From a virus (Duplodnaviria; Caudoviricetes): a stretch of 64,000 bases of DNA. The translations under genes and the position numbers were made by a program. The DNA is taken from IMG/VR virus record IMGVR_UViG_3300010355_001062, positions 1 through 64,000 of that record, one strand, 5' to 3'. This document shows, one piece after another, positions 381 to 30,800 of this stretch (position 1 is the stretch's first letter; every line of letters starts with the position of its first letter). A model generated the notes under the pieces. That model ran no database searches. It was not told the origin of the DNA and worked only from the letters and a program-made list of their open reading frames with translations.

Positions 381-393
381 AAGTTCGTTTTAG

Positions 394-466
394 TGGGCCA
401 TGTAGGATTTGAACCTACGACCACCTGATTATGAGTCAGACGCTCTAACCACTGAGCTAATGGCCC
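394..466 (-). tRNA. tRNA with CAT anticodon, most likely tRNA-Ile2 (lysidine-modified, reads AUA); CCA not encoded
   Basis: GGGCCATTAGCTCAGTGGTTAGAGCGTCTGACTCATAATCAGGTGGTCGTAGGTTCAAATCCTACATGGCCCA folds as a cloverleaf. It has G1-C72, C4-G69/C5-G68 and no initiator features. Confidence 0.9.
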
Positions 467-8053: not shown

Positions 8054-9280
8054 TTACACTGAATAAGCTTGTTCTTCGTAGGGTGGCAATTCGGGTACAG
8101 CTAACTTACCTAAAGCCCAGTAGCGTAAAGCATCCCATATGTGGTTGTGCTTAGTGCTATATGTCTCTTCCCCATTCAAGCTTTTTGATGGTATTATCAC
8201 ATATTGCTCTTGTTCTTTCATCCAAGCTGTATGAACTACTAGATACAATGTGTGCTCTTTTATTATGCCCACTCCACGTTTAATGGAGCCACCACGTCTG
8301 TTAGCTGATTTTATGTTGAAGCCATTCTCTTTCTTTAATAAATCAGCCTGCTCTTTAGCTACTGCATCATCCATTTCTACCTCAGTGTAGCCTACGCCGA
8401 CTTCGTCCATCATTTTAGCCAGCTCTGGTCTAGTTATGTAATTACCATAAATAGCACACCTAGCGTAAATGCGATTAGGGTAATCCATATCACGCCCTGC
8501 TTCTACCATAGCTAATGGGTCACCGTCATAACCATAATCTAAGCCGTAGCCCCTATGAGTTAGCATACGAGCTTCGAATTCGTGGTTTAAAATCCAGCGC
8601 ACATTAGGATAAACAGCTCCTTCAACTACACCTGTGAGACCTAAGCCATACACACGCCATTTATTAGCATCAGTAGCTTTATAGCTCATTATCGTAGCTA
8701 TAATATTAGGCGAACAATACGGGTTATCCATGAAAGTGGATATTAGTAGTATTGCTCTAGCCTGTTTTTGCACATGTGTATGAGCCCAGAACTTTGCTGT
8801 AGGGTTAAAATCCAGTATTACTTTATTCGTAGTCCGTAAACGAAGCTGATCATAAATGCTGTAGGCTATACCATTAGCTTCGTTTATAAATAAATATTGC
8901 CGTTTACCTGATTTAGCTCCTTGCTCTGTCTCAAATACCCGAAATTCGATAACTGACCCTGTATCAAATAAATACACATGATTAGTGCGATTGAACTTAA
9001 CTACACGATCCTTGACTTCCGGCGTTACAGCTAATATATTAGCTATATCGCGTATAGGCCCACTACGCATGTTCGGAAAGCTTTCTCCCGTGATCGTTAT
9101 CACAGCATTAGCCTCGGTTATAGCTATTAATAATAACCATTGCAGGGCGGAATAAGTTTTCGAAGAGCTTGTACCGCCCTGCAATATTATGGTATCGTTA
9201 TCCTGCCAAGCCTTAGCGAGCTGCCAAAATACTCTGGTAGTATTATGCTCATTGAACGGGGCTGGCGCGGCTACACTCAT
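8054..9280 (-). CDS. terL: Terminase large subunit (PBSX/Terminase_3-like)
   Basis: Walker A LQGGTSSSKT, FINEA Walker B, LDFNP, nuclease GLDYGYDGDP and HIWDALRY. Confidence 0.92.
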   Translation of the reverse strand: MSVAAPAPFNEHNTTRVFWQLAKAWQDNDTIILQGGTSSSKTYSALQWLLLIAITEANAVITITGESFPNMRSGPIRDIANILAVTPEVKDRVVKFNRTNHVYLFDTGSVIEFRVFETEQGAKSGKRQYLFINEANGIAYSIYDQLRLRTTNKVILDFNPTAKFWAHTHVQKQARAILLISTFMDNPYCSPNIIATIMSYKATDANKWRVYGLGLTGVVEGAVYPNVRWILNHEFEARMLTHRGYGLDYGYDGDPLAMVEAGRDMDYPNRIYARCAIYGNYITRPELAKMMDEVGVGYTEVEMDDAVAKEQADLLKKENGFNIKSANRRGGSIKRGVGIIKEHTLYLVVHTAWMKEQEQYVIIPSKSLNGEETYSTKHNHIWDALRYWALGKLAVPELPPYEEQAYSV

Positions 9281-9804
9281 TAATTAAGCTTTTCGATGTT
9301 ATATGCTACTACTACTTCCAGTAGAATACCGCACTCGGTAAGGTATGCACATAAAGCGACTAATGTACAAGCTAAGCGAAATTTAATAGCTTCAGCACGG
9401 GCTAAGCTCAATACGCCGTCATCGTCGCGCTGTGCTTTTTTCCATACATTAGCTATCTCAGTGCCATTAGCTACAGCGTGCATTAGTGGTGCATTTAACA
9501 TGTGTATTTCCTTGGCCATTTCGGTCAAAGCTTCCTGCGCCTTATCTAGGCTTTCCACGTATATATCCACCATAGCTAACAAGTCAGTTAGCTTTAGCTT
9601 TAGCTCATGGGCTACAACAGCTATATACCATAGCACGTCGCCAGCTTCGTCTACTAGCTTATTCGACATCTTATTGAGATACTGCTCACGCAGAAGCTCA
9701 CCCAATTCTCCGCATAAGCCCAGCACTGGGTAATTAAGATTAGCTCCAACATTAGGGTATCTAGCCGTTTTCAGGGCGGCCTTCTGATAATCGTTGATTT
9801 TCAT
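9280..9804 (-). CDS. MazG-like nucleoside triphosphate pyrophosphohydrolase
   Basis: DYQKAALKT...LGLCGELGEL...DEAGDVLWY; a second degenerate MazG half; ends YNIEKL. Confidence 0.85.
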   Translation of the reverse strand: MKINDYQKAALKTARYPNVGANLNYPVLGLCGELGELLREQYLNKMSNKLVDEAGDVLWYIAVVAHELKLKLTDLLAMVDIYVESLDKAQEALTEMAKEIHMLNAPLMHAVANGTEIANVWKKAQRDDDGVLSLARAEAIKFRLACTLVALCAYLTECGILLEVVVAYNIEKLN

Positions 9805-11518: not shown

Positions 11519-11728
11519 TTAAACATTTTCGGGGATTTTAAGAATCAATTTATCGTAATCTACTTGGTGCTCTTTGTATACACTTTCTATGAACTCTCGT
11601 AGTAGTTCTGGGTGATGTAGCGCTATATAAGCTAGCATAGCTCCTGGCACCCAGCCTAAATCGTTTAGCCATAAAGTATAGTCATCACAAACTATAATCT
11701 GACCAGAGCTGGTTGTCCAATTTGGCAT
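11519..11728 (-). CDS. Hypothetical protein
   Basis: 69-aa ORF with TAATG-type coupling. Confidence 0.6.
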   Translation of the reverse strand: MPNWTTSSGQIIVCDDYTLWLNDLGWVPGAMLAYIALHHPELLREFIESVYKEHQVDYDKLILKIPENV

Positions 11729-13083
11729 TATACTACCATTATAACATCTTGCGATGCTCTAGTAACAGCTGTGTATAACCAACGCCTTTTCTCATCGTAG
11801 CCCCAGTTAGCATCGCTAACTTGTAGTAGATTATTCAATAATACTATGGACTTATTATAAGTCGAACCTTGTGCTTTATGGCACGTGGTAGCATAATTGT
11901 AACCGACTTGAGCAAAAGTGCTCAATAGCCTTTTATAATTAGCTGCTGCTGCCGAATACGCCGGAGTGCCTTTACGATGTTGTGTTTGCATACTCTTAAA
12001 ATAAGTAAGCAACATATCGTAATCAGCTTGCGAGTCCTCATGCAATATGCGAATATCGACTTCGGTTTCCTGATCTATGAGTAGAGCATGCGCATTATAA
12101 ACTTTGAACCTAATCTGATCAGTCAGATCATAGTTCTCTACAGTATACGATAGAATTTTAATCTGATCGTTATTGCCCAGTACTACATTATCATCCACTA
12201 CGTGCCTGCCATTCGCTATAAGATTCTCACCATATAAAATCTTAGATTCGTGCACGGAATCGCCGTATATGTAGCTACGTAATGTATCATTCATTTTACT
12301 GGTCATATTCACAGTAGCACATATGACACGCGCAAAGTTAGTGTTATCCCTATATTCACGGCTAGAAAAAATATCTAGCAGGCATTCTCTGAACCATGTA
12401 CGTTCATCACTAATAGCTGAATCAGCTAAATATGTGCCGTGCCCTTCGTGCAGATTAAGCACGAATTTATCAGGCACACTAAAATCAGTCAGTAGATGCG
12501 AAGCTAGCTGTATAATCGGTGATAACTTACCTTGCCTGACTATCTCGGTCAAACGTACACCTTTTATATCATCGGATTCGTAGAATACATTAGCTTGTTG
12601 CCCTTTAGGTGGCAGTAGTTGTTCTACGTCACCAATAAATACAAATTTACATTTACCTTGGTGCTCTATAAGAGAGCTAAACATATCATTATTAAGCATA
12701 CTGCTCTCGTCGAAGAAAATAGCATCATAGTATTTGATAGCTACATCAGCTGCTTTTATGAAATCTGGCTCAAATTCGTTTTCGTTGTCTCTCAAGCCTA
12801 GTAAGCTGTGTACAGTACGGAAGCCTGAAATAGGAGCATCTCCAAGCTTAGCTTTGAGCACGTTTATAGCTTTTCCGGTAGGAGCGCTTATGCATATTTT
12901 CATACGCTGCGCCATACCTCTAGCTATATCAGTAGTTATGAGTGTTTTTCCAGTACCAGCAGGGCCTGTAATCCATACCCAGTTTAGCTTTAATTTACCC
13001 ATTAGATAACTGCGTACCAGCGTATGTGCTTCTTGCTGGCCTGCAGTATAACTAATAACGGGCTGTGTAGTAGAATTAGCCAT
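11728..13083 (-). CDS. Dda/RecD-like SF1B helicase
   Basis: GPAGTGKT, APTGKA, FDESSM, IGDVEQL, IVRQ, YATTCHKAQGST, YTAVTRA. Confidence 0.92.
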   Translation of the reverse strand: MANSTTQPVISYTAGQQEAHTLVRSYLMGKLKLNWVWITGPAGTGKTLITTDIARGMAQRMKICISAPTGKAINVLKAKLGDAPISGFRTVHSLLGLRDNENEFEPDFIKAADVAIKYYDAIFFDESSMLNNDMFSSLIEHQGKCKFVFIGDVEQLLPPKGQQANVFYESDDIKGVRLTEIVRQGKLSPIIQLASHLLTDFSVPDKFVLNLHEGHGTYLADSAISDERTWFRECLLDIFSSREYRDNTNFARVICATVNMTSKMNDTLRSYIYGDSVHESKILYGENLIANGRHVVDDNVVLGNNDQIKILSYTVENYDLTDQIRFKVYNAHALLIDQETEVDIRILHEDSQADYDMLLTYFKSMQTQHRKGTPAYSAAAANYKRLLSTFAQVGYNYATTCHKAQGSTYNKSIVLLNNLLQVSDANWGYDEKRRWLYTAVTRASQDVIMVV

Positions 13084-13417
13084 TTTTACTCAGTTGTGTT
13101 AGTTGGTGTAATGTATAGTTAGCTATCTGAGCATCCAATTCGACGCCCATTATCTCAGCGAATTCCAAATGATCAGCGATTTGCGACTCGTCGCTTATTG
13201 CTTCATTCTCACACAGCTCATGATGATGTCTACATAAAGCCATCAGCTTTTCTGGTATGTCTAATAGCTTAGAGCCACCTGAGCCTCTACCGCCTATATG
13301 GTGTATATCCTGAGCTTGTCTTTCCACCTCCGATAAGAAACATATTTCGCATATAGGTGCTACAGTGGTATCGCCGTCGTAAAAATGGTCAAAATATACT
13401 TTAGTGTGGTTTTTCAT
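13076..13417 (-). CDS. HNH endonuclease-like protein
   Basis: CEIC...DIHHI...LMALCRHHH. Confidence 0.7.
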   Translation of the reverse strand: MKNHTKVYFDHFYDGDTTVAPICEICFLSEVERQAQDIHHIGGRGSGGSKLLDIPEKLMALCRHHHELCENEAISDESQIADHLEFAEIMGVELDAQIANYTLHQLTQLSKNG

Positions 13418-15198
13418 TTCATCACAGTTTGCTTGTTAACTAATTCGAAAGTATATGTCTTGGAATTCGGAAATTCACCAAGTTGTTGATCGATAATAAA
13501 TATAGCCCTATCCTTGGATAACACAGGCATTAACTCCATTATAGCCATACACGCATCCTCGTCTAGCCCTAAGAATGGTTCGTCGATTAGCATTAGAGGC
13601 CATCTGCCATCTGCTATCAAGTCGAATAAACCCAATTGTAGCGTTAGCTGGACTCTAGTTACTTGCCCTTGTGATAAATCACCGTAAGGTATAATAACTC
13701 CATCTGCTCTAGCTATAATCAATTCAGTTTTAGTACGTGTAGCTTCTGCATCGATAGTGAATCTTACAGCCAAGCCAAATAGTTTGGAATAGCGGTCAAG
13801 AGCTTTATTTAGTTTGACAAATAGAGCCTTAGTAACATGGGCTTTAATTCCATTCGGCCCTAGAGCATCAGTATACCAAAAATTGGCTAACTCGAATTCC
13901 TCATTTAATGAAAGTATATTTGACTCTAGCTTTTCTTTAGCTTGTATAGCCTCGTATAATTCCAGAGTAGCTTTTTCTATGTATTCCGAGTAGTCGGTAG
14001 GCTTCGCTAGTAGTTTAGCTCTATGAGCAGCTTGTGCCATCTCGAATTTTAGCTTAGCGCTATTATGAGCTTGTAATTGTTCATTATACGTACGCTCTAG
14101 TGCTTTATGCGCATCCGTCAATTGCTTTATATGAGCGATTATACCATCTGCTCCAGCTCTAGCCAATTTATAACTATCACGCAATTGGCTCAGCTCTTCA
14201 TTGAGTTCATCTATCTTAGCTAGTTTAATCTTTTCAGCTTCTTCTGCCTCCAGCAAGGCTTTATCATAAGTAGCTCGAGCTACACATAATGAATCATGGT
14301 CGAATTCCCTACCGCAAGCCGTACAACCTGTAGCTATTGGTTTTGGCTTCGTTATGGTTTCGCTCTTTATGTGTGACAATCTAGTATTACCTCTAGCTAG
14401 GTCTGTCATAAAACCCATAGCTACTTCCTCAGCTTCTTTTAACTGAATCTGCTGTAATTCCAGCGATAAAGGAGCTAGTGCTGATGGCTCTGGTAAATTA
14501 CGAAGAACATGGTCGGCTTGCGTGAATAGCTTAGTAGCTTCAGCTAGTTGCTCCGCGTAAATAGCCTCTGCCTCAGCTTGTAATTTCTGATAATTACCTA
14601 AATTCGAATTAGCTGTAGTCTGGCGCTGTGTAGCTGAATTTAGCTGCGCAGTAGCGCTACTTAGTTCGGCTTTTATACGATTATAGTCTACTTGTACTTT
14701 AGCTCGTAGTGCATCAACCCAATCCAAATCGAATAATGACTTGAAAAATTCACGTCTTTCATTCTCATCATAGTCGCCCAATCGCCGAGAAGCTGATGCC
14801 ATTATAATGGCATTCTGAAATTGCATGGCAGTCATACCAAGTAGCTCAGCTATCCTGGCATTAATGTCTTTGATATATAAGCCCTCTGGTTTATAATTAC
14901 CTTCGAATTCTTTCAGAAGCTCGACTGATTTAGCACCGCGTGTGAGCTGGTAGTTAGTGCCGTCGACACTGAAATGTAATGTAACTTTTACTGAATTGCC
15001 GGTTAGATTGGATTGTACTGTCCCACCTGATTTTATGGATTTATTATACAGGCAAAAATATAGAGCCTCCATCACACTGGTCTTGCCTGCTCCATTCTTT
15101 CCCCTAAATCGAATAATTCCCTTATCTGGAAAAGATATGATCTTAGGCTCGATTATAGATCGGAAATTTTCAATCCTTAGAGTATGTAGTTTTATCAT
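13414..15198 (-). CDS. SbcC/Rad50 (T4 gp46-like) ATPase
   Basis: GKNGAGKTS, coiled coils with CTACG zinc hook, LSQGQ signature, LIDEPFLGLD. Confidence 0.92.
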   Translation of the reverse strand: MIKLHTLRIENFRSIIEPKIISFPDKGIIRFRGKNGAGKTSVMEALYFCLYNKSIKSGGTVQSNLTGNSVKVTLHFSVDGTNYQLTRGAKSVELLKEFEGNYKPEGLYIKDINARIAELLGMTAMQFQNAIIMASASRRLGDYDENERREFFKSLFDLDWVDALRAKVQVDYNRIKAELSSATAQLNSATQRQTTANSNLGNYQKLQAEAEAIYAEQLAEATKLFTQADHVLRNLPEPSALAPLSLELQQIQLKEAEEVAMGFMTDLARGNTRLSHIKSETITKPKPIATGCTACGREFDHDSLCVARATYDKALLEAEEAEKIKLAKIDELNEELSQLRDSYKLARAGADGIIAHIKQLTDAHKALERTYNEQLQAHNSAKLKFEMAQAAHRAKLLAKPTDYSEYIEKATLELYEAIQAKEKLESNILSLNEEFELANFWYTDALGPNGIKAHVTKALFVKLNKALDRYSKLFGLAVRFTIDAEATRTKTELIIARADGVIIPYGDLSQGQVTRVQLTLQLGLFDLIADGRWPLMLIDEPFLGLDEDACMAIMELMPVLSKDRAIFIIDQQLGEFPNSKTYTFELVNKQTVMK

Positions 15199-16178
15199 TT
15201 GCCTATGAATTGTTGAATGTAAACAAGACGCTTATCGCTGGCTACTCCCTTCGAATACTCATCAAGTATATCCCAGATAACTGGCCTACCATATACCTGT
15301 TCTGTAGCTTCCTCTTGTGTAGTTTCAATAGCAGCTAATTGTTGTACAATGTGCGGACGCACAGTAGTGTAATTAGTGGGTATAGCCCTTAGCGAACCGT
15401 CAGCTAGCAATATGTAAATACATTTATTCTGGCCTAAATCATCAGCAGCTAAATGACATGGGCTGCCTAATATGCGCCCTTTAATACCAATAGCTGGTTT
15501 GTGTATATGCCCACTTAAGTAGGAAATTCTTTGTGATTGTATGGCCTCACCATCGAAATCCGCTGGTAAGTTTAACGTGTTGATTGAGGGAGTTTGGTGT
15601 ATAACCAAGTAGCCACGATAATCTTCAGTAGCTTCAACTAATTCCGTTAATTCGCGTAATGTAGATGCGATAGCTGATTGCGGTTGCAACATATAAGGCA
15701 CAAAACGAAAAATAGCTTTACGAGTATATAGCTCAATATTGTCGGCTATAATAGCTAATTTAGCATGCGCCAGTAAGTTTATGGAGGAATGCTCTACTTG
15801 TGATTGGTCAATATTACGAGTACCAAGATCATGGTTACCAGTAAGGCAATAGAATTCTAATGGGTAGTTAGCCTGCAATCTGGCTACCAAAGCCAGTGTA
15901 CTATCAATGGCTCTTATTGAGATAGTATAAGCTTGATCGAATAAATCGCCGGCGCAAATCATTTTGCGTATCTCCAGTTTTTCACAAGTAGCCCATAGAT
16001 CAATTAATACTTTATGAGTGCGCTCCAGCATATCCTCATCGCCTTCCACTCCACGAAAAACTCCGGGCCCTATATGAAGGTCACTAAATATTAGGACTTC
16101 GGGGTTGCACTTAAAATCGTTTATGTTAATGTCAATCATATTATAAATATTGCGGAAAGCCGAATGGCAGTATACCAC
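15195..16178 (-). CDS. SbcD/Mre11 (T4 gp47-like) metallophosphoesterase nuclease
   Basis: FSDLH, AGDLFD, GNHD, SGHIH, GSP motifs. Confidence 0.9.
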   Translation of the reverse strand: MVYCHSAFRNIYNMIDININDFKCNPEVLIFSDLHIGPGVFRGVEGDEDMLERTHKVLIDLWATCEKLEIRKMICAGDLFDQAYTISIRAIDSTLALVARLQANYPLEFYCLTGNHDLGTRNIDQSQVEHSSINLLAHAKLAIIADNIELYTRKAIFRFVPYMLQPQSAIASTLRELTELVEATEDYRGYLVIHQTPSINTLNLPADFDGEAIQSQRISYLSGHIHKPAIGIKGRILGSPCHLAADDLGQNKCIYILLADGSLRAIPTNYTTVRPHIVQQLAAIETTQEEATEQVYGRPVIWDILDEYSKGVASDKRLVYIQQFIGK

Positions 16179-17211: not shown

Positions 17212-18054
17212 TCAGAAATATCGAATTTCTTTTAAGCCGGACAAATTTTCCTTATTATCAAGCATCCATTGTTTAGCTTGAGCGTAAGGAGCCGGGCAGA
17301 ACATGTTATAAATAACCTCACTGTAGCCCGTGAGCAGATAATTATCGAATAGGTAATTATAGGCCGAACTAGGTAAGTTATTGTATACGCAAATACAGTT
17401 CAATACATCATCCACAATACCGGTACGTAAAAAGTGTTCTTTGGTTTCAGTGTCAATCTCTTTTATACACGCACTGAATCGCTGGAATTGCGATTCATTA
17501 TATACTGGAGGCACGTTATCACCTGGACAACCTAGAAAAGCTTTCTTCACATTAGCCTTAACGGCTATGTCAATAGCTATTGAGTGATCATTAGGTAACC
17601 TGTATTCCTTCCTATCAGAATATTTCAGCCAGCTATGGCCATGCCCACGTACCATAGCTTCGAAATCGCCATCATTGCTTACTAATCGAGCTATAGCATA
17701 ATGGCTAGTCAATATGTAAGCTAAATCATCGGCTTCTAAGCCTTCGATACCGAAAGTGAGAAAAGCACCAGCCAACCTTTCCTCAGTCTCCGGCCGTATT
17801 TCCATGTATTTTTCGTTACCCACTCTGCCATTTTTATAGCTAGGGCTTAAAGCCTTTCTCCAAGCACGTCCCTTATCCATCACTAGCACTGTAGCATGTT
17901 TATTGGATTGTGTCTTAGAGCTTAGCTCCAGTGCTTTAACTGCCTCAATGACTTTATTAGCTAGTTGCTCTGCTGTTATGTCTTCTTGTGCAGTGTATTT
18001 ACTGATCACATAGTAGTTAGCTAGAGTGACGATAGAGTTATCTATTATTAACAT
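17212..18054 (-). CDS. 5'-3' exonuclease/flap endonuclease (T4 RNase H/T5 D15-like)
   Basis: LIIDNS, MDKGRAWRK..SPSYKNGR, GLEADD, SNDGDF, GCPGDNVP. Confidence 0.88.
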   Translation of the reverse strand: MLIIDNSIVTLANYYVISKYTAQEDITAEQLANKVIEAVKALELSSKTQSNKHATVLVMDKGRAWRKALSPSYKNGRVGNEKYMEIRPETEERLAGAFLTFGIEGLEADDLAYILTSHYAIARLVSNDGDFEAMVRGHGHSWLKYSDRKEYRLPNDHSIAIDIAVKANVKKAFLGCPGDNVPPVYNESQFQRFSACIKEIDTETKEHFLRTGIVDDVLNCICVYNNLPSSAYNYLFDNYLLTGYSEVIYNMFCPAPYAQAKQWMLDNKENLSGLKEIRYF

Positions 18055-18973
18055 TGTGTAGTTGTTTTTGTCTTAGAAAATTAGTTAGTTTCTGATCTAC
18101 GATCTCGCTTTTGTAGTAAAACACTCTAGCGAATTCTGGGCCTCCTAGCTCTAGCAATTCGCATATGCAAAGTAAGTATTTGAATACATCTATGGCTTCT
18201 TCTACTGCATGATTCCTATCGATAGTAGCAGGCCCTGGCTGATGTAGTTTATACTTCGTAGCCCTTAGTAGCTCGAAAGTCTCGTCGGTTAACGCAAGTA
18301 TATATTCGTGCACGCGCTTAATCTTAGCTGATTTGCTCATGCGCTTCACATCGTAGATGCGTGAATTAAAAGCGCTTTGTACTTGCATAAATTTCGCTAA
18401 GTCAATAGCGGGTTGTACATCTGGAGTTATCAAGCGCTCACAAGCTGTCATAACTCCTTGTAATGAATCTTGCGGTGCAATCAAGCGATAGCTAGCAAAA
18501 CACTTAGCTTCGTCTAGCATCGACTTACGTAAGCTATAGAAAGCTTCCTCTGAATAGGTAAGGCCATTTTTCTCGGCTGCGCCACGTTCGATATAAAGGT
18601 CGTACGTATTATCCAGAATTAATAATGTATAATCAAGTGCCTTAAGTCGACTACGCAAATCTTCTGGCGGGATTATCATAGCCTCCAAGCCTATATTCTT
18701 TTGGCGAATAGGGCCGTATACCAATTCAGTAAATGGCGAACGATCGCATAGAATAATAGCATCCTCAGGCATGTTATCAACAAAACCGTAGAAAGCCTCC
18801 ACACATCCAGCATAAAAATATGCTATATGCTCTCTAGCATATTCAGGTATATTATCCTTCATCGAATATAAGAAAGCATTATAGCCTTGTTGCTTTAGCT
18901 TAGTGGTAAGCAACGCAGCTACAGTTGTTTTACCAGTTCTGGGTAAGCCGTCAAATAGGATTACTTTTTTCAT
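18038..18973 (-). CDS. Fusion of a dNMP kinase (thymidylate kinase-like) and a dimeric dUTPase/dCTPase-like NTP pyrophosphatase
   Basis: N: FDGLPRTGKTT, CDRSPFTELVYG. C: QVQSAFN...LALTDETFELL...KYKLH...VEEAIDVFKYLL. Confidence 0.8.
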   Translation of the reverse strand: MKKVILFDGLPRTGKTTVAALLTTKLKQQGYNAFLYSMKDNIPEYAREHIAYFYAGCVEAFYGFVDNMPEDAIILCDRSPFTELVYGPIRQKNIGLEAMIIPPEDLRSRLKALDYTLLILDNTYDLYIERGAAEKNGLTYSEEAFYSLRKSMLDEAKCFASYRLIAPQDSLQGVMTACERLITPDVQPAIDLAKFMQVQSAFNSRIYDVKRMSKSAKIKRVHEYILALTDETFELLRATKYKLHQPGPATIDRNHAVEEAIDVFKYLLCICELLELGGPEFARVFYYKSEIVDQKLTNFLRQKQLHNVNNR

Positions 18974-20064
18974 GTGTTAAGTGCTTTTAATAGAGCGCTC
19001 TCCAGCTCTGTATGATCATTTATTATCCATTCGTGATCCGGTATTTCGTCATTCGGTACTGTAATTATAGTATTACCGTAGTCTAGCGCTTCGTAACAAG
19101 TGTAGTGTAGGCAATGATGCATAGGTTCTAGTAATGGTATTATACAACCGGCCCCATACTGTAATAGGCTATGATAAGTAGCCTTATCCGAACTATAGAT
19201 GGTGTTGCCAATGCTAACGCCATTGGAATCGTGCAATACGTACGGTGAGTATACTTTATAGCCTTGCTTTAGTAGACCATGTAGCACATTAGCTATTATA
19301 GGTACTTTATAAGGCTCATGCGATGGTTTCCAAGGTACTAATATAAAAGGAGCTGTAATGTGCTTGGGTTTTGCCATAACAGGGGCTATACCGCGTACCA
19401 AAAGATCACCTGATTTATAACCCTTGGTTATTCTACTAGCTTCTGGGTATAGAGCTAATTGGTCTAAAGTACCAACCAGCATTGGTATATTGTTATAGAG
19501 CTCCCCATCTATGTATTTCATTTTACGATATGACTCTATAGTGCACTCCGCGCCAGCTATAGCATAAGCAAGATATACTATGTCGATATTTTTGTATGCT
19601 TTTATTGCATCTAATAGCGACAATGCTGCTTTCTGTGGAGCAATATAGATAGTATTGAAGTAACGTAATATAGTGTGTATTTTGCACATATCGTTGATAT
19701 GTAGAGAGCGTGTATGGCGTGGGTCTTCGCCATAGGTCATAAATAAATACACTATATTTATACCACGTGCCCACATGTTTTCCTGAATGCTTGCAAGATA
19801 GCCTAAACCGGCTGTGGTAAGTTTCTCGGGTACAGCTATACAATATAATGTATCATTGTCGGCTATAGTTTGTATAAACCCAAGCACTGTCAGTAAATTA
19901 CCATCACGCTCTATATTATAAAAGCCGTCGCTCCTATAGCCATAAACAGGTATGAATAAGCTCTTTTGTGCAAAATTACCGTGAACTCTGTCATAGCTAT
20001 TTAGTAATAAGCTTGGAGTTAATGCCCAGTATAATCCACTTATTTTATCAGAGTAAGCTAGCAT
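18970..20064 (-). CDS. Putative GT-B glycosyltransferase-like DNA modification enzyme
   Basis: 364 aa, two-domain size, C-terminal YEALDYGNTIIT resembling GT-B E-A-x-x-x-G; context in the modification cluster. Confidence 0.45.
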   Translation of the reverse strand: MLAYSDKISGLYWALTPSLLLNSYDRVHGNFAQKSLFIPVYGYRSDGFYNIERDGNLLTVLGFIQTIADNDTLYCIAVPEKLTTAGLGYLASIQENMWARGINIVYLFMTYGEDPRHTRSLHINDMCKIHTILRYFNTIYIAPQKAALSLLDAIKAYKNIDIVYLAYAIAGAECTIESYRKMKYIDGELYNNIPMLVGTLDQLALYPEASRITKGYKSGDLLVRGIAPVMAKPKHITAPFILVPWKPSHEPYKVPIIANVLHGLLKQGYKVYSPYVLHDSNGVSIGNTIYSSDKATYHSLLQYGAGCIIPLLEPMHHCLHYTCYEALDYGNTIITVPNDEIPDHEWIINDHTELESALLKALNT

Positions 20065-20770
20065 GCTTTGTCATTACTACGATGAATGTTTTATATTTGT
20101 CGTCTCGCTCTATGATTCGGAAGTCCCACCCTTTCTTTATGGCTATATTCTCAGCAGTATACACATTCATGTAATCGATGAAGCCATCACGAGCTGCATC
20201 ATCGCAGTGGTACTCCATCATCACAAACTCAAGTTGTGAAGCTAGGAGCTCGTCGAAAAAAGTATGCTCAGCTCCCTCGACATCAATCTTTGCACACTTA
20301 GCGTTAGTCATATTCATGACATAGCTGAATTGTAATGCTTTGATAGGTAGCCGAGTCACGGAATGTGTATCGCTTAAACCCGGTGCCAGTGTGTGCCTAC
20401 CTGAATTGGTGCCGAGATTACCATATAATATAAATTGCTCCAGATTATTAGGCCCTACGATTGCATAATTCAATGGCACTATATCGTCGTAATACGCTGT
20501 ATTCTTCGACAATAGCGCAAAATTGAATGGCTCTGGCTCGAAAGTATAAATGCGCGAAGCACCTCGTCTATGTATTTTAATAGAGGAGCTACCTACATGC
20601 CCACCTATATCTAACCAGATAGGTTGTATAAATTGGCTCTCACTGCCTTCGTGGCTAACCATGCTTTTAGCTAAGTACTCTTTATAAAGAGTATCTAGTA
20701 TATTATCGTATGCTTTCTCAGCTACCACGAAAGCATCGGCTTTATGTTCTCTTATTAACCTCACTAGCAT
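20048..20770 (-). CDS. FkbM-family SAM-dependent methyltransferase
   Basis: LDIGGHVG, YTFEPEPFNFALLSKN, KIDVEGAE. Confidence 0.85.
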   Translation of the reverse strand: MLVRLIREHKADAFVVAEKAYDNILDTLYKEYLAKSMVSHEGSESQFIQPIWLDIGGHVGSSSIKIHRRGASRIYTFEPEPFNFALLSKNTAYYDDIVPLNYAIVGPNNLEQFILYGNLGTNSGRHTLAPGLSDTHSVTRLPIKALQFSYVMNMTNAKCAKIDVEGAEHTFFDELLASQLEFVMMEYHCDDAARDGFIDYMNVYTAENIAIKKGWDFRIIERDDKYKTFIVVMTKHASLL

Positions 20771-21588
20771 CCTATAAGTTTTTTCGCTTGTTCAATATTG
20801 TTTGCATAGATGTGCGACGAAGCTATTTGGAAACTCAATGAATTAAGTTTATAGCTTACTGTATCAAGCCTACCAAGCGCTGTGACAAATGCTTCTACAA
20901 ATTTGCTTATGTTATACAAATCATATAGCATAGTTATATAGGCATTGGATGACCTGAATGTAGCCACTACATCGATATTGTAGTGGAAGCCTATATCGGC
21001 GTCGCGCTTGAATATGACAATATCGCTACAGCACGGATATTCCAAATTAGTGTTAATATCGCGCAAGAAATCATCGGACTTATCCAGTATATGAAATACT
21101 ACACGTCTGGAGTTATCGCGCTGTATTTCGCGCAGGTTACCTTCCAATTGGCTCAATAACCTAGGGCCGTAAGCCGTAGAGAAATTAGCTGGTATCTCAG
21201 CTCCCGGCATGAAACGACGCACGCTAGGATTTATCTGAGCTAGCTCCTCCATGTCAGTGGAGCCGGACATCATCCAATCGCAGAATTTTTGCGCGTAAGC
21301 ATAATTCCAGTGCGGAAAAGCTTTATTCATGTGTTCCCAAGAATGAGGCCATTCGCATTTGAATGAGTAATTTATAATCTCATTCATATAGCCGAGCCGG
21401 CTATCGCATACATAATCAGGATGCTGTATTAACTCAGTGAGCAGGGCCATATAGCTCCTTACTAAAGATGTGTCCTTTGTCGGTTTCATAGAAATGATAT
21501 TGAAAGTTTTCAGCATAATAGCGAATGCATAATTCGATAAGTGCTGCAAATAGATGTTTGTCGAATTTGGATGATTTAGGCTTAACAC
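20764..21588 (-). CDS. Thymidylate synthase-fold, dCMP-type nucleotide-modifying enzyme (true start probably ATG at 21489)
   Basis: AYGPR, NSRR, YPC catalytic Cys, FRSSNAYITMLYD (Asp at TS N177), SSHIY. Confidence 0.85.
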   Translation of the reverse strand: MLSLNHPNSTNIYLQHLSNYAFAIMLKTFNIISMKPTKDTSLVRSYMALLTELIQHPDYVCDSRLGYMNEIINYSFKCEWPHSWEHMNKAFPHWNYAYAQKFCDWMMSGSTDMEELAQINPSVRRFMPGAEIPANFSTAYGPRLLSQLEGNLREIQRDNSRRVVFHILDKSDDFLRDINTNLEYPCCSDIVIFKRDADIGFHYNIDVVATFRSSNAYITMLYDLYNISKFVEAFVTALGRLDTVSYKLNSLSFQIASSHIYANNIEQAKKLIGC

Positions 21589-21988
21589 CGGCTAATAAAC
21601 TTACATCCCAATCCAGCTTACGAAAATTGCTTTCTAAGTCTGCTAGTGTAACGCCGAACACAGTAAACTGGAAATTACCCTTAGTTATGAGTTGTGGTCT
21701 GACACCGAATACATGCTCCATATTAAATGAATGTACCTCAGCATCCGCCCAAGAGTCGCCGGTCAATTCACGCATTATTTTCATGCCTCCGCGCACTATA
21801 GCACCGAAATAGAAACGATTCTGGTCTAGCGTACGTAGCTCTTTCTTCTCAGTACACTCAACCGTAAACTCTGGCTCGGTTGAATGGTATATAATCGATT
21901 TATTGATCAATGGGCTATTTACTTTTAAGTAAAGCTCATTATCGATTATTACTTTAGTACAGTTTAGCTGAATTGGTTTCATAGACAT
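21434..21988 (-). CDS. NinB/YbcN-like protein
   Basis: RTLDQNRFYF and SSKFDKHLFAALIELCIRYYAE. Confidence 0.55.
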   Translation of the reverse strand: MSMKPIQLNCTKVIIDNELYLKVNSPLINKSIIYHSTEPEFTVECTEKKELRTLDQNRFYFGAIVRGGMKIMRELTGDSWADAEVHSFNMEHVFGVRPQLITKGNFQFTVFGVTLADLESNFRKLDWDVSLLAGVKPKSSKFDKHLFAALIELCIRYYAENFQYHFYETDKGHIFSKELYGPAH

Positions 21989-26013: not shown

Positions 26014-26044
26014 CAAAGATAATCAAATTTTTGGAATATCCAAA
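26014..26044 (-). promoter_or_regulatory. Bacteroidota-type sigma70 promoter
   Basis: TTTG-N19-TATCTTTG. Confidence 0.75.
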
Positions 26045-27510
26045 GATAATTTATCATTTTTATAAATAGTAGCTAAAGACGGTTCTAACGAACCTATCTT
26101 AGTAGCATATTGGGCAGTTATTTTATAGCCGTATCTTTGATATATGGCTATGCGTTCTTTCGATTGTTTTTCGCAATATTTTCCATCATCGTAAAAATCG
26201 TAAACATATTTATTGGCTGATGTTAATCTACCCATACGCCCTAGATATTGCACCAACTCTATCTCTGATGAACCTGCTTGAGCATATATAAGTACATCCA
26301 TAGCTATATTAGCTCCTTCTTGCCATATATTAGTTATAAGTACTCTACGCCCTTCGGGTTTTGTAGAGAACTTAGCTAATAATTCACGTATCATATATTC
26401 CGGTTGCCCACCGTTTAGCATTATAACTTCAGCTTCTGGATAAGCTTGCATCACTGCTTCGCCTATCTTCATTGTGTGAACTAGCTGATTTACAGTAATC
26501 ATAATATTACCCTCGGTATGCTTGCCTACGGCTTCCATTATAAGCTTCAATCGGGCGGGTGATTCTATGATATTAGCTGCGTATACTTCGGCGTATTCCA
26601 TATCAGTTTTACTACCGGTAATTATAGGGGCGCTATGGTATAGTAAATTAACATGTAATGTAGCATTTATACCCGCCTCATTTAATCTTTGTGTAGATAC
26701 TTTATGCACTATATCGCCAAAGCTACTCATAACACGTATCTTAGCTGCATTGTGCTTACTTGAGAACGGCGTACCGGAAAAACCTATACGTGTAGCTACA
26801 CCTAACGAATTTATTAGCAGGTAGTATTCATTACCGCCCGCTCTATGACATTCATCTACTATTAATAAAGTAGCTTCATTCACAAGCCATACTAATGTAG
26901 GTTCGAATTCATGGTGCCTATTTATGACTGATTGATACATGCAGACAATAACTTGTCCGGGTATTATCTGCTTACCTCTTATTGAGCCTACTGTAAATCC
27001 GGCTTTCTTGAGGAAATCAATTAACTGAGTGTACAAAGTAGCATCATGTACCAGAATAAAAGCATAGCCCTCTTCCAGAGCATCTAAAAGAGCTGCTATA
27101 ATATAGGACTTACCACTATTGGTAGCATGGTCAAAAATAGCTGATTCTTTGAAATCAGTAGTAGTTAATCTTTCAGCGTAAGCTAATAGAGCTTCAGCCT
27201 GATGCTCACGCATAGAGCCAAAGCTCTTAACTGGATTAGTTAATTTAGCTTTATCGAATACGGCTATATTGCGTCTATAATCTGCTATATCGTACTCGAT
27301 TTCGAGCTCCTGCAAGTACTCAATAGCATCGGGCAATAAGCCCAATGGTATAGTACCATCAGGCAAGATAAAACACTCGGTTGAGTCGTAGTGCCCGGCT
27401 CTTGGGTTGAATAGCTTATCTGTTATGCTGAAATAAGCACGTAGTTTACCGAATAGTTCATCGTCATCGGTGTCTAATAAGGCATGCGAGTTAAATATTT
27501 CTATATTCAT
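26023..27510 (-). CDS. SF2 DExH helicase (UvsW-like)
   Basis: ATNSGKS, DECH, SGT, QYLGRMGR. Confidence 0.9.
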   Translation of the reverse strand: MNIEIFNSHALLDTDDDELFGKLRAYFSITDKLFNPRAGHYDSTECFILPDGTIPLGLLPDAIEYLQELEIEYDIADYRRNIAVFDKAKLTNPVKSFGSMREHQAEALLAYAERLTTTDFKESAIFDHATNSGKSYIIAALLDALEEGYAFILVHDATLYTQLIDFLKKAGFTVGSIRGKQIIPGQVIVCMYQSVINRHHEFEPTLVWLVNEATLLIVDECHRAGGNEYYLLINSLGVATRIGFSGTPFSSKHNAAKIRVMSSFGDIVHKVSTQRLNEAGINATLHVNLLYHSAPIITGSKTDMEYAEVYAANIIESPARLKLIMEAVGKHTEGNIMITVNQLVHTMKIGEAVMQAYPEAEVIMLNGGQPEYMIRELLAKFSTKPEGRRVLITNIWQEGANIAMDVLIYAQAGSSEIELVQYLGRMGRLTSANKYVYDFYDDGKYCEKQSKERIAIYQRYGYKITAQYATKIGSLEPSLATIYKNDKLSLDIPKI

Positions 27511-29222: not shown

Positions 29223-30800
29223 TTATTTCTTGGGTTTCTTTAGTGAGCGCATGATATGCAGACTAACTCTAGCACGAGTATACGCTACATACTCAAGATT
29301 ACGTGCTTGCTCCAGCTGCCATGGTTGTTCCCCATTGCGCCGTCGTGTTAGTAGCTCCGGCTCCATGATGAAAACCCTATTCCATTCAAGCCCCTTAGCT
29401 TTGTGTACTGTAGAGAATAATACACCTTCTGTCTGCTCACCAAAAAGTGTTTTAATAAACTTGCATAAGCTACCGGTATCATTAACATCCGGCACATTAT
29501 AGATCATGTGATTCACACAATCAATTTTGTCCTTTAGGTTAGAATAGCTGGGTGTCTCGACTACTTCGTCTAAACTCATATTAGGGAATACTCGCATGAG
29601 CTTATCAAGAGTCTCGCTCAGTTTAGAAGCCATTAAGCTATTCAATTCCGGTAGGTCATTAGCTTTAAAGCTCTGAACAAATTTTATTAAATTAGCTCCG
29701 ATGTCGGTACCTTGTATCATGGCTTTCTTGCCCTCGGCAATAAGAGAATAGCAACCCTTGATTAGTGGAGCTGTATTACGACATAACACTACATCACCAG
29801 GTCTCACCATATCTAATGTTTGGTCATGGTAAACCATTCCATCAATGGCAGTATCAGCAGCCTTTATTTCTGTGTCTATTCTATTTGTATACTCTATCAC
29901 GGCTTTCGAGCACCTCCAACATACTGATAATGGTAATACCTCAGCCTTTTCAGCGTAGTCATTCCAAGCACCTACATCAGCTCCTGTGAAGCCATAGATA
30001 GCTTGTGAATTATCACCTACAGCTATAATCTTACCATCAGCAGCTAGAGCACGTCTGTATAAGCGCCATTGAGCAGCATTCAGGTCTTGTGCTTCATCTA
30101 TAAAGATGTATTTGAATTTACGTAGTAGTAATTTTTCTTCTGGTAATGTAGCGGCCAGAAATAACATATCCGTGAAGTCAATGTTAGCCACATCATTATA
30201 TAATCTCTTGCATAATTCCCTTCCGGCATCGCGCTGAGCTGCATCTAGTATGAGACCATGCTTTTTGCATAAAGCTATTATTTTTTCCGACGTGGATGCT
30301 AGCTCTAAACGAATTAGATTTGCTAGTGCTTTAACGCCCTTTAGCACATTCTCACGATCCTCAACTGACTTAAGCCATTCCCATTCGTTTTCTCGCAACA
30401 TATTATCGAAATGACGGTTGAGCTTATGCTCGTCCATTCTAAGCTTAGAAGGCAATAAGGAACGACCAAATGAATGTGATGTTCTACAATCAACTCCAGG
30501 TATTCCCTTTAACCGTTCGGCTAATTCTTTTTGTATATTACGATTAAATGCTCCGATCAGAATGGAGGAACCAGGTGGTAGAGCTTTGACTGCCATTACT
30601 ATAGTAGTAGTTTTACCCGACCCGGCTTTTGCGTTAAGCAATATGTCTTTGATCTGTGGTGAGATCGTAGCTTCGAGAAATAGTGTCTGTTCGATTGTTG
30701 GTGTCATCTTCCGATTTTTTTCTTCCAGATCAAAGATAATAATAATTATTCTAAAATCAAAAATTATTTTTATTATTTTTAAAGAATTCCACATACTCAA
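29223..30800 (-). CDS. UvrD/Rep SF1A helicase (true start probably MTPTIEQ, ~30707)
   Basis: AKAGSGKTT, DEAQD, GDNSQAIYGFTG, STVHKAKGLEW, YVAYTRA. Confidence 0.93.
   Translation of the reverse strand: MSMWNSLKIIKIIFDFRIIIIIFDLEEKNRKMTPTIEQTLFLEATISPQIKDILLNAKAGSGKTTTIVMAVKALPPGSSILIGAFNRNIQKELAERLKGIPGVDCRTSHSFGRSLLPSKLRMDEHKLNRHFDNMLRENEWEWLKSVEDRENVLKGVKALANLIRLELASTSEKIIALCKKHGLILDAAQRDAGRELCKRLYNDVANIDFTDMLFLAATLPEEKLLLRKFKYIFIDEAQDLNAAQWRLYRRALAADGKIIAVGDNSQAIYGFTGADVGAWNDYAEKAEVLPLSVCWRCSKAVIEYTNRIDTEIKAADTAIDGMVYHDQTLDMVRPGDVVLCRNTAPLIKGCYSLIAEGKKAMIQGTDIGANLIKFVQSFKANDLPELNSLMASKLSETLDKLMRVFPNMSLDEVVETPSYSNLKDKIDCVNHMIYNVPDVNDTGSLCKFIKTLFGEQTEGVLFSTVHKAKGLEWNRVFIMEPELLTRRRNGEQPWQLEQARNLEYVAYTRARVSLHIMRSLKKPKK
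30731..30761 (-). promoter_or_regulatory. Bacteroidota-type sigma70 promoter
   Basis: TTTG-N19-TATCTTTG. Confidence 0.75.

Follow-up and report, generated by a model that had tools for sequence, protein, structure and literature searches.

The genome of an uncultured phage, IMG/VR record IMGVR_UViG_3300010355_001062, carries on its minus strand a gene (20764-21489) whose 241-residue product has the thymidylate synthase (TS) fold and is, with high confidence, predicted to be a flavin- and O2-dependent 5-hydroxylase of deoxycytidine monophosphate (dCMP), a member of the AfhB / RB69 gp48 family. This confidence applies to the assignment of the enzyme, and not to the pathway steps proposed further below. 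Coordinates refer to the window, namely the first 64 kb (64,000 nucleotides) of a 75,320-bp record that is rated complete, unless the whole genome is mentioned; nearly all of its genes lie on the minus strand.

The idea that the chemistry is new finds no support: the family of folate-independent enzymes that hydroxylate dCMP, and so let a phage exchange its cytosine for sugar-bearing 5-hydroxycytosine, is already known, and was published in 2025-2026. What is genuinely new is the setting, a variant of the gene cassette with an FkbM-family methyltransferase and a kinase-MazG fusion, found in a new phage lineage. The enzyme extends a recently discovered branch of the TS superfamily, the one that moved from folate chemistry to flavin/O2 hydroxylation; T4-like phages and phages of Rhizobium, in which the branch was first seen, are only remotely related to the present lineage.

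Active-site residues

The reference point for this family is the work of Lee et al. (NAR 2026, PMC13326640) on RB69 gp48 and DLP3 gp80, which convert dCMP to 5-hydroxy-dCMP (5hodCMP), take the oxygen from O2 and bind flavin; the crystal structure of the HY126 enzyme and its in vitro reconstitution are attributed there to He et al. (Nat Chem Biol 2026). In E. coli ThyA numbering, which is used throughout for the reference positions, the diagnostic substitution is D169N, accompanied by N177D and L143E/D, and all nine diverse D169N homologs that were tested, metaviromic ones included, made 5-hydroxydeoxycytidine (5hodC) (PMC13326640).

Three alignments were compared: one by MAFFT with E. coli ThyA, T4 gp42 and RB69 gp48 (ORF048c), a second by MAFFT L-INS-i with 13 sequences, and a third by profile hidden Markov model (HMM) against PDB chains. 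The residue equivalences are identical in all of them. With the query residues counted from the ATG at 21489, the catalytic nucleophile C146 corresponds to C153; N177, the position that governs dCMP specificity, to D190; D169 to N182, within the motif RSSN; L143 to E150; and E58 (E60 in T4 gp42) to F69. The residues that bind the deoxynucleoside monophosphate (dNMP), R126/R127, R166, S167 and H207, are retained. The first-pass annotation, working by eye, had read the catalytic Cys in a YPC motif, an Asp at the N177 position, an Asn in place of the pterin-binding D169 and a Phe in place of Glu58/E60; each of these four readings is borne out in every alignment, and the comparison with ThyA, gp42 and the dCMP hydroxylases does not restore Glu or Asp at the E58 and D169 positions.

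The same pattern extends to the closest relatives. The query and its five orthologs all have the catalytic Cys, D169N, N177D and L143E, and the nucleophile and all of the nucleotide-binding residues are invariant across these six sequences (59-66% identity). The Phe at E58 occurs in every aligned member of the hydroxylase group, RB69 gp48, Lazarus gp076, P10VF_177 and the 9IQC chain included. Because E58 is absent from the twelve residues listed in PMC13326640, its replacement by Phe may serve as a second marker next to D169N, and the present case supports sequence-based prediction of these enzymes with both. In addition, PDB entry 1bjg (the TS of L. casei), which appears among the fold matches, is titled 'D221(169)N mutant does not promote opening of the cofactor imidazolidine ring', and this title fits a loss of folate chemistry.

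Homology, fold and phylogeny

How visible is such a protein to the usual searches? The TS family of Pfam (PF00303) reaches 15.8 bits on the query, under its cut-off of 24.3, so that Pfam alone would have missed the gene, and PHROG_160 (thymidylate synthase) matches it with E 4.9e-17. The best relatives of solved structure are 9IQC, 9IQU and 9IR2, which the single sequence matches with E 1.3e-32 and the profile with 4e-39; T4 gp42 and MilA match the query profile at E 1e-5 and 4e-4, orders of magnitude weaker than 9IQC. The comparison of folds points to the same enzymes: 9IQC ('Monooxygenase dependent on riboflavin with dCMP and FAD') and 9IQU ('phage HY126 dCMP hydroxylase-AfhB with substrate dCMP') take Foldseek ranks 1 and 2 for the query model, at a TM score of about 0.6 for what is a modest model. 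This AlphaFold model served for the ranking of folds alone, its confidence being too low for the residues of a flavin pocket.

Among phage genomes, RB69 ORF048c (gp48) is 31% identical to the query, with E about 4e-32 to 5e-32 by tblastn against phage records. That search matched 389 of the 50,697 records at E <=0.01. Mosigvirus, with its ORF048c-type genes, supplies the best matches, and next come Dhakavirus, Marfavirus, Lazarusvirus and Pootjesviridae, all of these being lineages reported to produce 5-hydroxycytosine (5hoC) (PMC13326640). A word-indexed protein search returned the five orthologs, and a pattern scan of IMG/VR added one distant locus (L015). In a maximum-likelihood tree of 13 sequences the query clade falls with the known hydroxylases (91/91), apart from gp42 and ThyA; the branches are saturated, so this grouping carries little weight.

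These data also speak to the functional predictions of the first-pass annotation. Specificity for dCMP is supported, as the nearest characterised relatives, RB69 gp48 (31%) and HY126 AfhB, have both been demonstrated by experiment to be dCMP 5-hydroxylases that depend on flavin and O2. The proposed loss of folate use agrees with the published role of D169N as a diagnostic of the flavin/O2-dependent relatives and with the E58-to-Phe change common to the aligned group, and 5hodCMP as the likely product finds support in the homology to enzymes proven to make it.

Some observations weigh against the assignment. Identity between the query and the characterised enzymes is only about 31%, and its clade has features that those enzymes are without: a Cys-Cys pair at the nucleophile (H147 to C154), a Phe at Q165, a Thr at G173, and an insertion of 6-14 residues after the strand of the catalytic Cys that has no counterpart in them. 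The AlphaFold model, built from six sequences, is mediocre (pLDDT, the predicted local distance difference test score, is 64). Finally, the TS homolog on L007 (L007:4045-4758), a distant contig that carries a related cassette, has Phe at E58 and keeps the Asp at D169, in the motif RSND. By the published D169N rule this homolog would not be called a hydroxylase, so the rule may not capture the family fully. The L007 protein has Glu at L143 and Asp at N177, and the tree groups it with the hydroxylases.

Alternative readings of the gene

Three other functions were weighed against the dCMP 5-hydroxylase. The one that survives best, although it is improbable, keeps the query in the hydroxylase branch as a flavoenzyme and gives it another product or substrate (another C5 adduct, or CMP or dCDP), on which the FkbM enzyme and the glycosyltransferase (GT) of the cassette would then act. 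In its favor are the altered shell of the active site, with its Cys pair, the Phe at Q165, the Thr at G173 and the insertion, the identity of only 31% to the tested enzymes, and the FkbM gene of the cassette, which is absent from the described 5hoC systems. Against it stand the uniform outcome of the nine D169N homologs mentioned above, diverse as they were, the intact phosphate-binding arginines and N177D switch, and an adjacent GT that is homologous to enzymes whose acceptor is the 5-OH of 5hoC.

Less probable still, and indeed very unlikely, is a folate-dependent dCMP hydroxymethylase like T4 gp42, which would imply phage DNA with 5-hydroxymethylcytosine, glycosylated or not. The query and gp42 (PDB 1B5D/1B5E/6A9A) do have in common the fold, the Cys nucleophile, the Asp that governs cytosine specificity and an acidic side chain at L143; gp42 works before replication, at the level of dCMP, to replace cytosine, and the query is predicted to do likewise; and several relatives are labelled 'dCMP hydroxymethylase' in GenBank. 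However, gp42 uses 5,10-methylenetetrahydrofolate (CH2-THF) with Glu60 and Asp171 (the D169 position), which are Phe and Asn in the query by both the MAFFT and the HMM alignments. The two proteins are about 22% identical, the profile match to gp42 is E 1e-5 versus 4e-39 for 9IQC, and the same type of annotation on RB69-type genes has been shown experimentally to be wrong (PMC13326640).

That the protein is a dead TS-fold nucleotide binder, for example a regulator or scaffold in a complex for deoxynucleotide synthesis, is scarcely credible: the loss of the canonical folate residues speaks for it only when the published work on the hydroxylases is set aside, enzymes proven to be active show these very 'losses', and the nucleophile and nucleotide-binding residues do not vary among the six orthologs. 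A thymidylate synthase proper, ThyA, does not fit either, with D, F, N and E at N177, E58, D169 and L143 and the PF00303 score below its cut-off. The query has in common with E. coli ThyA the fold, the phosphate-binding residues R126/R127, R166, S167 and H207, and C146; it differs in these four substitutions and in H147, which is Cys, lacks the C-terminal segment that closes over the folate, and is 15% identical.

The dCMP 5-hydroxylase is accordingly the reading retained here. With RB69 gp48, DLP3 gp80, HY126 AfhB (9IQC, 9IQU, 9IR2) and RL38J1 gp216 the query has in common the TS fold, the catalytic Cys, N177D, L143E, D169N and the E58-to-Phe change, and the identity of about 31% to the RB69 gp48 type holds over the full length. 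What sets it apart from that type is the Cys-Cys at the nucleophile, the residues at Q165 and G173, and the extra loop.

The gene cassette

The hydroxylase gene is the first of four cassette genes that overlap their neighbors by 4-17 nt. Next to it lies the gene of an FkbM-family methyltransferase dependent on S-adenosylmethionine (SAM) (20048-20770, minus strand, 240 aa), predicted from PF05050 (34.2 bits against a cut-off of 22.7) and PHROG_8156 (E 1.5e-12); its overlap is 7 nt with the hydroxylase gene and 17 nt with the following GT gene. Its SAM-binding motifs, LDIGGHVG and KIDVEGAE, are intact, and orthologs stand at the same position on the related contigs L002-L004 and on L007. In the PDB this protein has no sequence relative, and the few matches in cultured phages (pelagiphage HTVC112P, cyanopodoviruses, a spring virome) include none beside a TS gene.

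The third gene (18970-20064, minus strand) encodes a 364-aa protein that only fold and profile comparisons identify, because nine scanned members of its family gave no Pfam match and tblastn against the phage records gave none either. Apart from a 2,002-aa protein that matches over a short repeated stretch, an exhaustive HMMER search yielded only eight relatives, all of similar length. The AlphaFold model built with these eight relatives has a pLDDT of 80 and a predicted TM score of 0.81, and its top Foldseek matches in the PDB are all GT-B enzymes, MshA (3c4q) among them, the entry that was also reported as a structural match of RB69 gp46:47 (PMC13326640). In BFVD the matches include RB69ORF047c and proteins of Acinetobacter phage KARL-1, Serratia phage Muldoon and Shigella phage SSE1. 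By hhalign the family aligns with Lazarus gp075 (99% probability, E 9e-18) and with the N-terminal half of P10VF_178 (96%), both of which directly follow the hydroxylase gene in their phages. On profile and model evidence, then, the 364-aa protein is a predicted GT-B enzyme homologous to the DLP3 gp79 / RB69 gp46:47 / RL38J1 gp215 type, for which the role of first GT on 5hoC DNA (GT1) has been proposed (PMC13326640).

The fourth gene (18038-18973, minus strand, 311 aa) joins a Tmk-like dNMP kinase (residues ~1-160) to an all-alpha nucleoside triphosphate pyrophosphatase similar to MazG/dUTPase_2 (~189-295). These domains are assigned from Pfam Thymidylate_kin (E 4.7e-6) and dUTPase_2 (E 0.003) and from matches to PHROG_761 and PHROG_173; the PDB entry 4s35, a Tmk, is a weak match. 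In L007 each half has a gene of its own.

The order hydroxylase, GT1, Tmk-like kinase is that of RB69 (ORF048c-047c/046c-045c) and Lazarus (gp076-075-074), and P10VF 177-178-179 follows it too, 179 being a putative kinase. The known core order is preserved with two changes, the insertion of the FkbM gene between hydroxylase and GT and the fusion of a pyrophosphatase domain to the kinase, and in both respects the cassette differs from the described 5hoC systems. The whole arrangement, FkbM gene included, recurs in contigs of the same lineage from sewage and other metagenomes (L002-L004), and again in L007, a far more distant contig, with identities of 29% for the TS homolog, 25% for the FkbM protein and about 24-27% for the GT. 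Small differences exist as well: L002/L004 have an extra 121-aa open reading frame (ORF) between the GT and kinase-MazG genes, which the window is without, and in L007 two ORFs of 201 and 55 aa lie between FkbM and GT.

A proposed pathway and the modified base

The pathway outlined here was derived from gene content and conserved order. By homology, Cys153 would add to C6 of dCMP and Asp190 would read the N3/N4 face of the cytosine, and a reduced-flavin/O2 species would hydroxylate C5, in place of the one-carbon transfer from CH2-THF for which TS and T4 gp42 use E58 and D169, here Phe69 and Asn182. Upstream of this step, the MazG-like half of the 311-aa fusion would turn dCTP into dCMP; that the fusion of a pyrophosphatase domain to the kinase serves to remove dCTP is plausible from its domains. 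The hydroxylase would then yield 5hodCMP, the Tmk-like half would phosphorylate it, a host nucleoside diphosphate (NDP) kinase would finish 5hodCTP, and the phage DNA polymerase PolA would incorporate 5hoC into DNA. In the last two steps, the 364-aa GT-B enzyme would attach a sugar to the 5-OH and the FkbM enzyme would add an O-methyl group.

Where would the sugar come from? The ORFs of at least 110 aa at 1-36 kb of the window and ten ORFs at 67-75 kb of the genome, a scan that left out the structural region at 36-63 kb and in which many short or unassigned ORFs remain, include no gene for sugar-nucleotide synthesis, no dCMP deaminase and no second TS. Since sugar-nucleotide genes do not appear among these ORFs, the donor is probably an NDP-sugar of the host; RB69 gp48-type systems differ on this point, as the scanned ORFs hold no genes for arabinose or other NDP-sugars. 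Other parts of the phage may also remodel the nucleotide pool: a second, stand-alone MazG-like protein is a weak candidate at 9280-9804 (minus strand, E 0.003), and an HD-domain protein at genome 68989-69510 (minus strand; L014:5989-6510, E 2.5e-4) is a candidate 5'-deoxynucleotidase of the YfbR type.

And what does the FkbM enzyme methylate? The first-pass annotation had suggested that it could yield 5-methoxy-C or a methylated sugar; PMC13326640 nowhere mentions a methyltransferase. A tentative preference goes to the sugar as the target; direct methylation of some or all of the 5-OH groups, which would give 5-methoxycytosine, is a possibility of lower standing, and some other target takes the smaller remainder. 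The GT1 homolog is kept in every relative and would need a free 5-OH, which favors methylation of the sugar. Two leads, to be taken as such, point the same way: among the structural neighbors of the FkbM protein in the ESM Atlas are three clusters, viral throughout, whose proteins are fusions of an FkbM domain with domains of GT1-family glycosyltransferases, and some neighboring clusters also match the RfbT family of O-antigen methyltransferases. Isoelectric points, computed for the FkbM protein and the GT as an indicator of DNA versus small-molecule substrates, were uninformative, as the known DNA GT1 homologs are acidic too.

Direct capping is chemically plausible by analogy. In tRNA, the SAM-dependent O-methyltransferase TrmR caps the 5-OH of a hydroxypyrimidine, converting ho5U to mo5U. 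That system differs from the present one in its RNA substrate, in its methyltransferase family, which is not FkbM, and in having no tie to TS-fold hydroxylases. Natural 5-methoxycytosine in DNA did not turn up in a full-text literature search.

The presence of an O-methyltransferase gene between hydroxylase and GT, conserved across diverged relatives, leads to the prediction of a new methylated hypermodified cytosine. More precisely, and still tentatively, the methyl group may end up on a DNA modification in a form that has not been described, either an O-methylated glycosyl-5-hydroxycytosine or 5-methoxycytosine at some or all sites. If this is true, the methyl cap would be an extra layer of protection against glycosylases or modification-dependent nucleases, and an undescribed base would be present in a new ~75-kb lineage of phages of aerobic Bacteroidota (Chitinophagales/Saprospiraceae). 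The base would then matter for the evasion of restriction and CRISPR, for enzymes by which modified DNA is cut or read, and for the sequencing of environmental phage DNA.

The start of the hydroxylase gene

The first-pass annotation had placed the gene at 20764-21588. This minus-strand ORF contains all of the quoted motifs (EYPCCS, RSSNAYITMLYD and YAQKFCDWM) and the gene is real, yet its GTG start at 21588 does not hold. Similarity to every relative starts at codon 34 (M34), which is the ATG at 21489, and the N-terminus MKPxKD found there is conserved in the five orthologs. Because both the homology and the ortholog N-termini begin at this codon, and the longer version adds 33 N-terminal codons without support, the gene is best read as 20764-21489 (minus strand), shortened to 241 aa. 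On related contigs the hydroxylase gene calls are 237-238 aa long and overlap the upstream ORF by 56 nt, as in the window. The stretch 21490-21588 (minus strand), which holds the 33 codons 5' of the likely start, is probably untranslated in the TS-fold protein and lies inside that upstream ORF (21434-21988, 184 aa).

A start at 21450, with AAGGAG in front, was rejected: the orthologs are without a Met there and share the MKPxKD upstream of it. The ATG at 21489 lacks a ribosome-binding site. Shine-Dalgarno use is low in Bacteroidota, and this would account for the absence.

A related gene cluster without a TS-fold gene

A distant homolog (P0012) of the 364-aa GT lies in a gene cluster (L008:5480-11170, also seen on L009) of a ~98-kb metagenome phage contig. 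The seven other assignable genes of this cluster encode a U32-family protein, a dCMP deaminase, a uracil-DNA glycosylase (UDG), a Tmk-like kinase, a GT47-like GT, a UDP-galactopyranose mutase and a dUTPase_2. The U32-family protein is 32% identical to RB69 gp50 (E 1e-57), and no TS-family gene is present in the 15 kb of L008 that were read. From this gene content, the cluster may represent a TS-independent, U32-type route to a glycosylated 5-hydroxypyrimidine. Together, L007, with its Asp169 kept, and L008, with a U32 protein and no TS-fold gene in those 15 kb, are natural test cases for what defines cytosine hydroxylation.

Phage lineage and host

The phage has no named relative, because megablast of the 9 kb around the hydroxylase gene against the 50,697 phage records gave no match and its PolA is at most 27% identical to that of any cultured phage. 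Enzymes of the RB69 gp48 type are known from Straboviridae and Pootjesviridae; the query clade stands outside both, and has so far been found only in uncultured phages of ~75 kb with PolA, probably with Bacteroidota as hosts.

The best clue to the host is an unusual auxiliary gene beyond the window, at genome 72064-73509 (minus strand; L014:9064-10509), where a 481-aa protein has both domains of the copper type II ascorbate-dependent monooxygenases and, in addition, a type IX secretion C-terminal sorting domain. Its closest homologs, at 38-47% identity, are from metagenome-assembled genomes of Chitinophagales/Saprospiraceae. The sorting domain and these homologs indicate an aerobic Bacteroidota host, probably a member of Chitinophagales/Saprospiraceae, which is compatible with an O2-dependent hydroxylase.

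The remainder of the window adds a replication and repair module and one RNA gene. The module (13414-16178, 11728-13083, 26023-27510 and 29223-30800, all minus strand) comprises SbcCD-like proteins (SMC_N, Metallophos), two SF1 UvrD-like helicases, an SNF2/ResIII helicase and a divergent DnaB, and a single tRNA-Met gene is located at 393-466 (minus strand).

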